Below are positions 397 to 4,187 of a DNA stretch of 4,187 nt, piece after piece; the stretch's first letter is position 1, and every line of letters begins with the position of its first letter. The DNA comes from a virus (Duplodnaviria > Heunggongvirae > Uroviricota > Caudoviricetes), in the IMG/VR virus record IMGVR_UViG_2529292981_000043. One strand, 5' to 3'. The notes beneath the pieces were generated by a model. It was not told the origin of the DNA, made no database searches, and saw only the letters and a list, made by a program, of their open reading frames with translations. The position numbers and the translations under genes are program-made.

Positions 397-1709
397 TCAT
401 TCTCCTGTTCTGCCTGTATCACTGCCCACTTCATCCAGCCCCTTAACATCCTGCCACGGCCCGTCACCAAACCTGACCTGCAAATGCTGAAAAAAACCCT
501 GAACCCGTGTGGCATCTTTGGGGTCAAGAAAGGTCAGTCCGGTGATGAGTGCGCCATCTGTATCCGGGAACCAGCCATTGCTGTTTGTCTCAATAATGTT
601 TCCCGGCCCCAGACGGAACCGTATTTGTGTCTCCCCCGGGTCGCCCTTCGGTCCCTGAGGTCCGGTTGCCCCACCGGGCCAGCCGCACCTGTTTCTCCTT
701 TCGGTCCCTGTGGGCCTGCCGGGCCTGCCGCACCGGTATCTCCCTTTGGACCCTGTGGACCTGCATTTCCCGTCAGACCGGTCTCTCCCCGCTCTCCCCT
801 GTCACCTTTCGGCCCCTGCGGACCTGCCGGACCTGTATCTCCTCTCGGTCCCCGTTCACCGGTTGCCCCGACAGGGCCGGTGTCTCCACGCTCTCCTTTA
901 TCTCCCTTCGGCCCCTGAGGACCCGCGGGCTCCTGTTCCCCCTTTGGCCCGGGAGGTCCCACCACGGTGGGGATTCTGTTTACGGCTTCTTCCGCCGCTA
1001 TCCTGCTTTGTTCCGCTGACTGTGCGCTTTCTGCTGACTCCCGGGCTTTTTCTGCTGCGGTCGTTGCATCCCTGGCTGCATTACCGGCTGCACTTTCTGC
1101 CGTCTTTTTTGACAACTCAGCATCTGTTGCACTTTGTAATGACTCACTGGCTTTTTGAGCGGCCGCAGAGGCCGAGGACGAGGACGCCTCCTCTGACTGC
1201 TTTGCAGCGGCTGCACTTTCTGCCGCCTGCCGGGCTGACTCCGATGCATCCCCTGCTGAAGTGTCAGCATTTGCCGCGCTCTCTTCTGCCTGACTGGCTG
1301 ATATGCCGGCATTCCTCGCGGACGTCTCCGCCTCTCCGGCATTCTTCTTCGCCTCCTCAGCGTGACGCGCCGCTTCTTCCACCATCAGTTCAAAACGGCG
1401 CAGTGCCTCCGGCCGGACGTCATCCTCCGACATGGCACCGAGAAAATCATTCAGCGTCCCCGGTTGAGAATCTTCATACACGGTGATGGTCCCGGCATGT
1501 GACGGCGGGAACCCTTCCACCAACAGAATAACGCTGTACTGACCGTACTCAACGTCCATGCTGTAACGACCGGCTTCATCCGGATTTTCAGAGGCCACCG
1601 TGTTCACCACCACCGTGGCGCTGTTACGTCTGGCTTTCAGTTGAATGGTGCAGTTCTCTACCGGTTTTCCTGTGCCGTCTTTCAGTACACCTGAAATCTT
1701 TACTGCCAT
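397..1709 (-). pseudogene. stf: Side tail fibre protein (lambda Stf-like N-terminal domain, Ala/Ser/Glu-rich segment, collagen-like Gly-X-Y stalk, short distal domain); frame broken by a 1-nt deletion in a G4/C4 run at 669-672
   Basis: The ORF 534..1715 translation begins [28 protein letters not shown]…, matching the lambda Stf N-terminus as I recall it. The likely true start is the ATG at 1709-1707 (GGGGTGA upstream) rather than the GTG at 1715. Residues ~105-250 are Ala/Ser/Glu-rich and residues ~253-349 are Gly-X-Y triplets. After GPVG the listed frame becomes Arg-rich and stops at 534-536. The adjacent frame continues the Gly-X-Y phasing without a break ([14 protein letters not shown]) and then reads [76 protein letters not shown]-stop (TGA at 399-397). 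One extra G in the minus-strand run gtgggg-c joins the frames. Confidence 0.8.
630..959 (-). repeat. Collagen-like Gly-X-Y coding repeat (~35 triplets) within stf, including imperfect ~45-nt tandem units
   Basis: The translation is GPPGPKGEQ…[85 protein letters not shown] then [14 protein letters not shown]. Two adjacent imperfect 45-nt copies (about 675-719 and 720-764) encode GPQGPKG(D/E)TGAAGP(A/V). The plus-strand mirror ORF 112..918 shows the same periodicity as repeated [13 protein letters not shown]. Confidence 0.8.
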
Positions 1710-1720
1710 ATTCACCCCAC

Positions 1721-1746
1721 AAAAAAGCCCGCCTGAACCGGCGGGC
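1721..1746 (-). terminator. Rho-independent terminator downstream of lom, immediately upstream of the stf ribosome-binding site
   Basis: On the minus strand: GCCCGCC-ggttca-GGCGGGC (7-bp GC stem) followed by TTTTTT (1726-1721), then GTGGGGTGAAT-ATG of stf. Confidence 0.65.
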
Positions 1747-1774
1747 TGTCATAACACTGTGTTACCTGGCTAAT

Positions 1775-2372
1775 CAGAACTTATAACCGACACCCACGAT
1801 GAAACCGTCAGTGCGCCAGTCGCCACTGCCGGAGCCTTCATAAGCAATATCAATGGCCACGGATTCGGTCGGGTTAAACTGCACGCCAGCCCCCACGCCA
1901 GAGACGTGTTGCTGTGGCGACCGTCATCACTTCCGGTCAGCACATCGTGCGTTTTCCCCTTGTTGCCAGTTACGCGAAGATAATCCCCGGAGAAAGTCGA
2001 CACACGGCTGTAAGCCACACCCGCCATCGCATACGCGCTGAACCATTCATTCACGCGCACAGACGGCCCCGCCATTACGCTGAACCAGCGGTTACGAACG
2101 GAATCTTCATGCCAGCGGGTATCGCTGTAACGGGTAAGCTGGCGATTCCTGTCTCCTGCATAGCTGAATGACGTCACCAGCCCCAGCGTGTCCGTAAATT
2201 CATAACGGTATTTCACGTTAATCCCGTTAAGATTATCGCTACCGGGAGCGCTCGTCCGGGCATGAAGATACCCCGCGCTCAGCGTGGCCTGCTGCTCAGA
2301 CGCCCATGCAGGCGCGCCGGATACGGCCAGACAGATGGCTGCGGACAAAATGGCGGCATAAAGTTTACGCAT
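1775..2372 (-). pseudogene. lom: Lom / Ail / PagC-family outer-membrane beta-barrel protein (lambda Lom-like moron); frame broken by a 1-nt deletion in a C5 run (plus strand 1890-1894)
   Basis: ATG at 2372-2370 preceded by GAGAGG (2383-2378, 5-nt spacing). The N-terminus MRKLYAAILSAAICLAVSGAPAWA is a signal peptide and the next ~160 residues closely match lambda Lom as I recall it. After …HSNTSLAWG the listed ORF runs into unrelated sequence and stops at 1770-1772, whereas the adjacent frame reads GAGVQFNPTESVAIDIAYEGSGSGDWRTDGFIVGVGYKF-stop (TGA at 1775-1777), a typical outer-membrane barrel C-terminus ending in Phe. One extra G in the minus-strand run tggggg-c reconnects the two frames. Confidence 0.85.
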
Positions 2373-2395
2373 AATTACCTCTCGCTTTTCTGCAA

Positions 2396-2419
2396 TAAAA
2401 AAGGCGCCATTTCTGGCGC
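2396..2419 (-). terminator. Rho-independent terminator downstream of J
   Basis: On the minus strand: GGCGCCA-gaaa-TGGCGCC (7-bp GC-rich stem, 4-nt loop) followed by TTTTTT then ATTG. It lies 21 nt after the J stop codon and just upstream of the lom ribosome-binding site. Confidence 0.6.
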
Positions 2420-2439
2420 CCGTATATGGGTTATAAAAT

Positions 2440-4187
2440 TCAGCTGATACTGATACCTGCTGTGGATTTTTTCATCACCACAACCAGCAGATCGCTGATA
2501 CTGGTTGTTGGTGTCCAGTTATTCGCTCCTGATGAAGATACGGTGAATGTCAGTGTCAGCGTCCCCTGTCCGGCAGGCATATCTATAACTGAGGAAAATA
2601 CGCCCTGAGCATCCGTCGTGGACTGATTAAAAATCTCCTGACCATTGCGGGTCACTCTTAACCGGCAGGTTGAATACCAGTATGACTGTTGGTTATTACT
2701 GTTGAAATTCTCATGCTTACCACCGCGGAATAACACTGGCGGTATCATGACCTGCCGGTCAAACTTCTGATCATCACTGATTCTTACCGTGATGGTGCCA
2801 CTGGCATAAGTGCTCGTGCGGGGGAAAGACTTGCTGACCGTTTTGACAATATCGCCTTCAATCTGGTTGGCTGACAGTTTCCCCTTAATCTGACAGTTCT
2901 CATTAATCGTGACGTTGTTGAGCGTCCCTGAGTTCGCATTCACACTGCCACTGATATCCGCATTTTTCGCCGTCAGTCGCCCGTCCGGCGTCAGGGAAAA
3001 CGTCGGGGGATTGCCGGAGAGTGATCTCACCGCAAACAGTCGTTCAGGAACACGTCGTTCATGAACAGCTGATTCCCCTGCGCCACAAATAACGGCGTGC
3101 TGTTGCCGCTCTCCGGATTTATCATCGCGATACGGTCAGCCAGCAGCAGTATGTTGCTCAGTGGCTGGCCATCAGTATCCTCAATCCCTGCACCAATCCC
3201 GGCCACATAGGGAATGCCGTCTTTCGTTTTTTGAACCTTCAGCATGTACAGCGCAGCCAGGTCATCATTTGTGTCCTTCTGCACGCGCTGTATCTGCTGT
3301 ATAGTGGCGCTCTGGTTCTCCAGCGTTTTACTGACCGTCTGTGTGATTTCATTGCGGGTTTCCGTGATGCTGGTCTTCATCTCCGCCATCTCATCCGCAA
3401 GCTGGCTGTTGTCTATCAGCTCCCATAGCCCCTGAGCCAGATGCAGTTTTCCTATTTTTTCCCGGAAAAATTCCAGATACCCTTCACCATCATTGCTGGG
3501 CTGCCCGCTGACTTCCACAAACGCAGATTTCCCCACCAGGTTGACGCTGCGCACGTAAAACCAGAAATCCGTCCCCGGCTTAATCCGGCTTCCCTGGACA
3601 GTCCACTGACTGCCGCTCCCCAGATAACGGGCAGATTTTTCCACCTGTGCCGTGTTCGTGATGCGTTTTTCCGAAAACCAGAACTCAAACTGCACCGTCG
3701 GGTCATACACCGCCAGCACCGGTACCGCCGTTATCTGAAAATACCCCGGCGTCAGTTCAATGGTGGCGGGTTTTGCTGGCGCGTTAATCCGGAAGGTGGT
3801 GATGGCCGGTTCCCCCTGCTGGCCATAACTGTTAATTGCCCTGACTGTCAGGGTGTATTCCCCGAGCGGCAGACCACTGAAACGATGCTCTGTATCCGCA
3901 GTGATGGCGGTGGTCACCAGACGGCTGTCCTGACCGCTTCCACTGGTCAGGCGCAGACTGAAGCGCACGCCCTTCACCACCCGCGGCGTGTCCCATTTCG
4001 CCTGCGCCAGATACTGGCTGTCAGCTGCACTCACCTCCACCGTCAGGTGCTGCACTGCCGGAGGGATGACGCTGTTCAGGGTGCCGCTCTGGTCGCCGTC
4101 AAAGTGCGCCCCGTTATCCACGATGGCTTCTTTTTCCGGTACGTGCTGCACTGCCGTGATGGCAAAGGTGCCGTCCGTGTTTTCCGG
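2440..4187 (-). pseudogene. J: Tail-tip host-specificity protein J (lambda gpJ family), C-terminal ~580 codons; 5' end lies beyond the window edge; reading frame broken by one frameshift near 3037-3047
   Basis: Minus-strand ORF 3027..4151 is open to the window edge (no stop upstream of its GTG) and its translation (…[19 protein letters not shown]…TPGYFQITA…[15 protein letters not shown]…VGKSAFVE…VAQGNQ.FMNDVFL) matches the lambda J C-terminal half as I recall it. The adjoining ORF 2440..3030 in another frame continues the same protein ([30 protein letters not shown]…DMPAG…), ending at TGA 2440-2442. The switch occurs at minus-strand ctgaacgactg, where frame A reads FLNDCLR-stop and the other frame reads [14 protein letters not shown]; one extra A (ctgaaa cga ctg) would restore a continuous VFLKRL… reading. 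Confidence 0.85.

Follow-up and report, generated by a model that had tools for sequence, protein, structure and literature searches.

The tccP/espJ lambdoid prophage of E. coli O157:H7 is Sp14 in strain Sakai and CP-933U in EDL933. Sp14 has been scored as defective in several morphogenetic functions and is not packaged (PMC2669165). Its late genes include a J-lom-fibre module that is present in near-identical copies, about ten or more, in O157:H7 genomes. For the collagen-like fibres of EHEC, a domain scheme has been described (PMC3368898).

The window analysed here (the whole stretch of 4,187 nt) is the late end of this prophage. It is the terminal 4.2 kb of draft contig AKLQ01000036.1 (assembly GCA_000267105.1), which runs from unique chromosomal sequence through espJ and tccP into the J-lom-fibre module and stops 2 nt past the window, within J. 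The gene order is the same as in Sp14/CP-933U (J, lom, collagen-like fibre, fibre C-terminal gene, tccP, espJ, yodB, zinT), with an identity to the window of 98.8-99.1%, and O157 genomes contain 11-16 places matching the window. Matches to phage databases start at window position 81; bases 1-80 are the 3' flank of tccP, the neighbouring gene in RefSeq. J, lom and the fibre gene, all on the minus strand, are each broken into two ORFs. Indels were called against the orthologous region of the complete genome NZ_CP018241.1 (99.1% identity). The features are as follows.

87-111, minus strand: terminator-like hairpin at the prophage end
126-395, minus strand: Phage_fiber_C gene, intact, 89 residues (Pfam Phage_fiber_C and RefSeq annotation)
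397-1709, minus strand: collagen-like side tail fibre gene (ORF 534-1715), split by a missing base
669-672: C4 run in the fibre gene, C5 in intact alleles and in NZ_CP018241.1
1774-2372, minus strand: lom, Ail/Lom outer-membrane beta-barrel protein (ORFs 1770-2372 and 1774-1896), split by a missing base
1890-1894: C5 run in lom, C6 in NZ_CP018241.1 and CCCCCC or CTCCCC in intact alleles
2440-4187, minus strand: 3' part of J, tail tip/host specificity protein (ORFs 3027-4151 and 2440-3030), cut by the contig end
3018-3043: J deletion cluster, single bases lost after window positions 3018, 3020, 3025 and 3042

The true relatives of the J, lom and fibre alleles are O157 prophage alleles and not those of lambda. 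The called J products matched Pfam Ig_J, Ig_J_second, Phage_Tail_Tip and Ig_GpJ_C; with these domains and a position upstream of lom, the gene is a lambda-type J, and its ortholog is annotated in RefSeq as 'phage attachment tail tip protein J'. Lom is a member of the Ail/Lom family (PF06316, Ail_Lom, and PF13505 on a 200-residue product) with a putative signal peptide, MRKLYAAILSAAICLAVSGAPAWA, that we recognized by eye from the sequence only. The fibre protein, whose ortholog is a 'prophage tail fiber N-terminal domain-containing protein' in RefSeq, has a lambda Stf-like N-terminus, a coiled coil, G-X-Y repeats and a C-terminal fibre domain. After repair it belongs with the EHEC collagen-like side tail fibres (EPcl) and has 33 consecutive G-X-Y triplets, the shortfall against the 37 of strain 319 being due to T931, which breaks one Gly. 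The earlier note had described the proteins as well conserved relative to lambda. For Stf this held only over the first 110 residues, with 91% identity to lambda orf-401, and it did not hold for Lom (46.5%) or the C-terminal part of J (55% over 587 residues).

The window had lost six bases and gained none. Compared to NZ_CP018241.1, it differed by 33 substitutions and six 1-nt deletions, with no insertions: one missing base in the C run of the fibre gene, one in the C run of lom, and four within 25 nt of J. When the six bases were restored in silico, there were four uninterrupted genes with protein identities of 95.6-99.8% to strain 319, including 582/583 matching residues in J and 199/200 in Lom. 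AKLQ01000036.1 is the only contig for which any of the truncated Lom, fibre and J products is recorded.

The lesion in J is a cluster of four deletions. The earlier note had claimed one homopolymer deletion in each gene. It located the three runs correctly (C4 at 669-672, C5 at 1890-1894, TT at 3043-3044), and the loss of one base from stf (C5 to C4) and one from lom (C6 to C5) was borne out by comparison to NZ_CP018241.1. J had instead lost four separate bases between 3018 and 3043, shown in brackets in GGA[C]GA[G]GTGAT[A]CTC...GTCG[C]TTC; just one of them belongs to a 2-nt run. With 4 nt lost in all, the result resembles one frameshift. The proposed one-base repair (TT to TTT) brings J back into frame, but its product then lacks one residue and has RSL in place of the SITS of the reference.

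All four bases missing from J were at columns that differ between paralogs. In a pile-up of 120 related loci, the four columns were dimorphic (C/T, G/C, A/G and C/T) with minor-allele frequencies of 0.31, 0.31, 0.47 and 0.43. They were the only columns at 0.3 or above across reference positions 3013 to 3055; the others there were below 0.2. The window is identical to either allele class, CGAC or TCGT, minus those four columns. Both classes are present within one complete O157:H7 genome, PV15-279 (CGAC at locus L134 and TCGT at locus L138), and L138 is identical to window positions 2425-3000, a 576-nt stretch that reaches the border of the cluster, and divergent beyond. Columns 3001, 3003 and 3007 also differ from this paralog, yet each kept a base. 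TCGT was the third alternative J allele used as a query and the only one found at 100% identity in typical O157:H7; the first two occurred chiefly elsewhere, one in ExPEC and the other in non-O157 EHEC and atypical O157. An Stx1a phage and a FRIK2455 paralog were also considered as the second parent; their J and lom alleles are those of the ortholog, which leaves the deletions unexplained.

The base missing from lom can also be assigned to a dimorphic column, a C/T position with a minor-allele frequency of 0.45. Both lom alleles are present in O157:H7 TR01 (CT at locus L132, CC at locus L135). The fibre C4 run is the only one of the six deletions that is off the strongly dimorphic columns; polymorphism in that run is limited to the last C, with a minor-allele frequency of 0.11. 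The probability that at least five of six random 1-nt deletions would be placeable on strongly dimorphic columns is 1.5e-4. Among singleton 1-nt deletions at other loci of the module family, dimorphic columns were not significantly enriched (4/19, P = 0.2), and therefore the effect is particular to the GCA_000267105.1 assembly.

The single-base indels were confined to the repeated end of the contig. The unique sequence next to it on the contig, 9,467 nt long, had none and only three substitutions, and the eight genes in this flank (espJ and seven chromosomal genes, yodB to hprS) are all at reference length. If six indels were placed at random over 13,654 nt, the probability that all would be in the window is (4187/13654)^6, or approximately 8e-4 (our own calculation). 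The clustering of indels in the window exceeds chance. On the same contig, the called tccP product (142 residues) was suspected of being truncated; alignment showed two fewer 141-nt repeats and no frameshift.

We considered under-calling of homopolymers by the sequencing platform (of the 454, Ion Torrent or early long-read type) across the whole assembly. C runs of 5-6 account for two of the six missing bases, the indels are exclusively deletions, and scattered complete genomes have the same two C runs in shortened form, among them the 86-24 mutant assembly (L003), which has a second shortened run (G5 to G4 in J). However, systematic under-calling is expected to place indels in runs, in unique and repeated DNA alike, and this was not the pattern observed. 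The unique flank had no indels despite 179 homopolymer runs of at least 4 nt and 57 of at least 5 nt, three of the four bases missing from J are single, non-repeated bases, and longer runs in the window (A6-A8, T8) are intact. As an explanation for the whole window, we consider under-calling unlikely, although it may apply to the fibre C4 site alone. The choice that the earlier note offered, decay or under-calling, therefore falls on the side of artefact, but by a different mechanism, given the clean flank and the three of six bases outside homopolymers.

Based on these results, we believe that the three frameshifts are probably errors in the consensus of a draft assembly in which paralogous prophages were assembled together, and not lesions in the genome (a probability of roughly 0.78, judging from the sequence comparisons). 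We favor a collapsed-repeat error at the contig end because paralogs differ at the columns to which five of the six missing bases can be assigned. The contig end is multi-copy, errors are at differing columns and both alleles occur in the lineage for five of the six sites, the fibre site being the exception. Reads from at least one other prophage copy would have been aligned together with reads from the tccP/espJ prophage, and at columns where they disagreed the consensus step would have dropped the column without choosing a base. The four discordant bases of J would have been lost in this way just past the 576-nt stretch that is identical between paralogs, and the C/T column of lom likewise. 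Against this mechanism, discordance did not always lead to dropping: a few columns inside the shared repeat that are discordant in other alleles were resolved to a base. If this explanation is correct, there should be two underlying populations of J reads, ...GGACGAGGTGATACTC...GTCGCTTC and ...GGATGACGTGATGCTC...GTCGTTTC, of which the deposited sequence, GGAGAGTGATCTC...GTCGTTC, would be the shortened form, and the J, lom and fibre genes of the strain would be intact, as they are in the orthologous prophages of complete genomes.

The frameshifts could instead reflect recent pseudogenization, in which six bases were truly lost from an already defective prophage, inactivating J, lom and the side tail fibre gene. 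The defects of Sp14 noted above indicate that selection on tail genes may be relaxed, and resequenced EDL933 likewise has a frameshifted J annotation for its copy of the prophage (a different, single frameshift, at position 7812 of L001). Complete-genome records also contain shortened runs: 23 of the 4,642 that match at lom have its C5 form, and 5 of the 706 that match at the fibre gene have C4. However, independent mutations are not expected to fall on exactly the four paralog-dimorphic columns within 25 nt and on a fifth in lom, and all six changes are deletions. The J variant was absent from all 5,426 complete genomes. The flank is nearly identical to that of other O157 genomes (3 substitutions in 9.5 kb), and six indels in 4 kb would therefore have to be a very recent and very local burst. 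Real decay of these genes is unlikely, though less so at the stf C4 site.

Another way for the deletions to be real is exchange between diverged O157 prophage paralogs, with single-base losses exactly at heteroduplex mismatches. Error-prone repair where gene-conversion tracts end would then have left them as its mutational signature and, in a defective prophage, knocked out the tail genes. We regard this as distinctly improbable.

The shortening of identical C runs in independent genomes might also indicate functional slippage, with phase variation or programmed frameshifting at the tracts of lom and the fibre gene. Such systems have a long slippery tract and use both frames, features that we did not find at these sites. 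The tracts are only 5-6 nt, the shortened forms are rare, and the three copies inspected are annotated as frameshifted, including the one C4 fibre record inspected. Many intact lom alleles carry a T within the run (CTCCCC) with the frame kept, and slippage leaves the J cluster unaccounted for. We consider functional slippage highly improbable. Within the collapsed-paralog explanation, the fibre gene most likely went from C5 to C4 through a further error, of the consensus or of homopolymer length, in this poorly resolved region; this is the least certain part of our interpretation.

We searched complete genomes for an exact match to the whole window. The best match was 99.1% identical, as was the best match to the fibre part, and no record had the same mosaic. 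An argument for a chimeric consensus from the absence of this mosaic was abandoned: across the orthologous 10 kb, a pair of complete O157 genomes shows 120 differing sites. For the same reason, the patchwork of substitutions in the fibre gene is neutral evidence.

The biological weight of the frameshifts is small: the prophage is a known carrier of tccP and espJ. Real decay would also matter less than the earlier note supposed, since Sp14, the counterpart in Sakai, is defective in any case. In draft EHEC genomes, frameshifts in J-lom-fibre modules should not be scored as pseudogenes, and statements on the inducibility or host range of a prophage should not be based on them unless reads or long-read assemblies are at hand. 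Two questions make a cheap and reusable test: are the missing bases on columns that differ between paralogs, and is the unique flank of the same contig clean?

The window has much in common with collapsed-repeat errors in drafts of multi-prophage EHEC genomes. The region is multi-copy, the contig breaks off within the repeat, errors occur only there, and bases were lost where copies differ, beside the stretch of paralog identity. It differs from such cases in that the column-dropping step is our inference here and in that some discordant columns were retained. Unlike the window, Sp14/CP-933U prophages in complete genomes have intact lom and fibre genes, and J is intact in strain 319. The fibre shares with EPclA/B, the trimeric collagen-like side-tail proteins of EHEC prophages, a phage-fibre N-terminus, an Ala/Ser/Glu-rich coiled coil, a G-X-Y stretch and a C-terminal fibre domain; unlike in EPclA/B, the deposited frame leaves the collagen stretch at about residue 347, without the C-terminal trimerization domain. 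The stf gene of lambda (PaPa) is likewise two ORFs in its reference record (orf-401 and orf-314), and it is with orf-401 that the N-terminal domain is shared. The split in lambda reportedly reflects a 1-nt deletion relative to Ur-lambda, a finding attributed to Hendrix and Duda in 1992. In lambda, a single-copy gene carries a lesion that has been verified as a real mutation, whereas the window's fibre gene has a collagen-like body and a split for which a consensus error is indicated.

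The window carries four genes and three terminator-like hairpins, and the position of a hairpin after J, lom and the gene for the fibre C-terminal domain protein suggests that each module has its own transcription end.

Genes and hairpins in the window
4187 to 2440, minus strand: 3' part of J (Pfam matches on called products)
2402-2421, minus strand: terminator-like GC-rich hairpin with a T tail, after J
2372 to 1774, minus strand: lom (Pfam matches on called products)
1726-1747, minus strand: terminator-like GC-rich hairpin with a T tail, after lom
1709 to 397, minus strand: collagen-like side tail fibre gene
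395 to 126, minus strand: fibre C-terminal domain protein gene, 89 residues (Pfam fibre-C match)
87-111, minus strand: terminator-like GC-rich hairpin with a T tail, after the fibre C-terminal domain gene

Six single bases are missing from the window. We aligned it base by base to strain 319 (NZ_CP018241.1), the top-matching complete genome (99.1% identity), and found 33 substitutions and six 1-nt deletions, with no insertion.

Bases missing relative to strain 319
669-672, fibre (stf): C5 to C4
1890-1894, lom: C6 to C5
3018-3043, J: four separate single bases

The earlier note had described one homopolymer deletion in each of the three genes. The alignment bears this out for stf and lom; J has instead lost four separate bases, bracketed here: GGA[C]GA[G]GTGAT[A]CTC...GTCG[C]TTC. 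The loss of 4 nt in sum resembles one frameshift, and the proposed repair of TT to TTT does recover the frame, but the protein then reads RSL where SITS is expected. With all six bases put back there are four uninterrupted genes, encoding proteins 95.6-99.8% identical to those of strain 319. At 4183-4186, 2-5 nt from the contig end, the window differs from the comparators in a few more minor ways, as ragged contig ends commonly do.

AKLQ01000036.1 (39,632 nt; GCA_000267105.1) is the one contig on record for each truncated product (Lom, fibre and J); it stops inside J, 2 nt past the window. We compared the adjoining 9,467 nt of this contig, containing espJ, tccP and seven chromosomal genes, with strain 319. 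There was no single-base indel in this flank, only 3 substitutions and one 282-nt difference, and all eight flanking genes keep their reference lengths. The indels are therefore confined to the multi-copy module; the chance that six random indels over 13,654 nt would all fall in the window is ~8e-4. Systematic homopolymer under-calling, one of the two origins previously offered for the shortened runs, is contradicted by this clean flank, which holds 179 homopolymer runs of at least 4 (57 of at least 5), and we consider it improbable. The 282-nt difference is in tccP (~4190-4775 of the contig locus L009, just outside window position 1), which has two fewer 141-nt proline-rich repeats than in strain 319, without a frameshift; the repeat number may truly vary, or the assembly may have collapsed the repeats.

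The missing bases fall largely on columns at which prophage copies differ. We gathered 120 related IMG/VR loci with a conserved 26-mer and built an allele table and a pile-up on the intact ortholog. Across reference positions 3013-3055 of J, only four columns reach a minor-allele frequency of at least 0.3 (C/T, G/C, A/G and C/T), and it is precisely these four bases that are absent from the window: removing the discordant columns from either the CGAC or the TCGT class of J alleles gives the window sequence. In lom, intact alleles read CAGC[C/T]CCCC (minor-allele frequency 0.45), versus CAGC-CCCC in the window. The fibre C5 run is nearly invariant, varying only at its last C (frequency 0.11). 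If a deletion within a run may be assigned to any position of that run, the probability that a random 1-nt deletion can be assigned to a column of frequency at least 0.3 is 0.123, and for at least five of six P = 1.5e-4.

Both alleles occur within single O157:H7 genomes. O157 genomes each have 11-16 places that match the window. The tccP2 prophage of TR01 (L132) reads T, C, A, T at the four J columns and CT in lom; another of its prophages (L135) reads C, G, A, C in J and CC in lom. PV15-279 has the CGAC allele at one prophage locus (L134) and T, C, G, T in a paralog at 1.69 Mb (L138). L138 matches the window base for base over 2425-3000 (576 nt); its first mismatches come at 3001-3007, followed by the four dropped columns and by strong divergence beyond 3400. 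The J deletion cluster therefore lies just beyond the edge of a long paralog-identical stretch.

Based on these sequence comparisons, we believe, with a probability of about 0.78, that the deletions are consensus errors that would have arisen when paralogous prophage copies were co-assembled at the contig end. Past the edge of the identical stretch, reads from another copy may still have co-aligned. Such an error accounts well for the four J bases and the lom base, which real decay, in our view unlikely, could produce only through five independent deletions on paralog-dimorphic columns. Against co-assembly error, some discordant columns in the window were kept, and singleton 1-nt deletions at other related loci lack the same bias (4 of 19 on dimorphic columns, P = 0.2).

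The shortened alleles are rare. The J variant was absent from 5,426 complete genomes, the top match being 95.8%, a value that the four gaps account for. Among matching records, 23 of 4,642 had the lom C5 variant and 5 of 706 had fibre C4, spread across unrelated serotypes; the three copies inspected (L003, L004 and L005) are annotated as frameshifted pseudogenes, and L003, from an 86-24 mutant assembly, has lost a base from another homopolymer of this region too (J, G5 to G4). The C runs at 1890-1894 and 669-672 are hot spots for either sequencing error or slippage. Viewed in isolation, fibre C4 might reflect either a homopolymer miscall by the platform or a genuine change; it is probably one more error in this poorly resolved stretch. 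Phase variation or programmed frameshifting at these runs is very improbable, as the tracts are short and intact alleles break the lom run with a T.

The fibre genes (121-1750) combine short patches from at least three types of O157 paralog (the strain 319 ortholog, an Stx1a phage and a FRIK2455 paralog), a mosaic found in no complete genome (top match 99.1%). The orthologous 10 kb varies at 120 sites between complete genomes, so this patchwork is evidence neither for nor against an artefact. Position 931 is T, whereas each of 39 related loci has C, as do three O157 paralogs; the T puts Glu in place of the obligatory Gly in a collagen G-X-Y triplet (GEPGPA to GEQEPA), cuts the uninterrupted G-X-Y run from 37 to 33 triplets, and may be another consensus error. 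Position 1966 in lom is a singleton C that changes one residue of Lom; T stands there in all 28 related loci and in every O157 copy compared.

Most likely, then, this is an assembly artefact in an already known prophage, an ordinary finding that calls for caution with pseudogene calls in multi-copy prophage regions of draft genomes. The high conservation relative to lambda described in the earlier note holds for the fibre N-terminus (91% identity over 110 residues) but not for J (55%) or Lom (46.5%). The fibre is one of the EHEC collagen-like side-tail proteins (PMC3368898). The neighbouring genes (tccP, espJ, then yodB, zinT, msrQ, msrP, hiuH, hprR and hprS) mark the element as the E. coli O157:H7 tccP/espJ lambdoid prophage, which corresponds to CP-933U in EDL933 and to Sp14 in Sakai. 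In the resequenced EDL933 genome, J of the same prophage is annotated as frameshifted (7804-7845 of locus L001, upstream of the window), with the missing base at 7812 within a patch of paralog-type substitutions. In Sakai, several Sp14 functions were scored as defective and the host-specificity genes as intact; Sp14 was excised only via regional replication driven by Sp15, and it was not packaged (PMC2669165).
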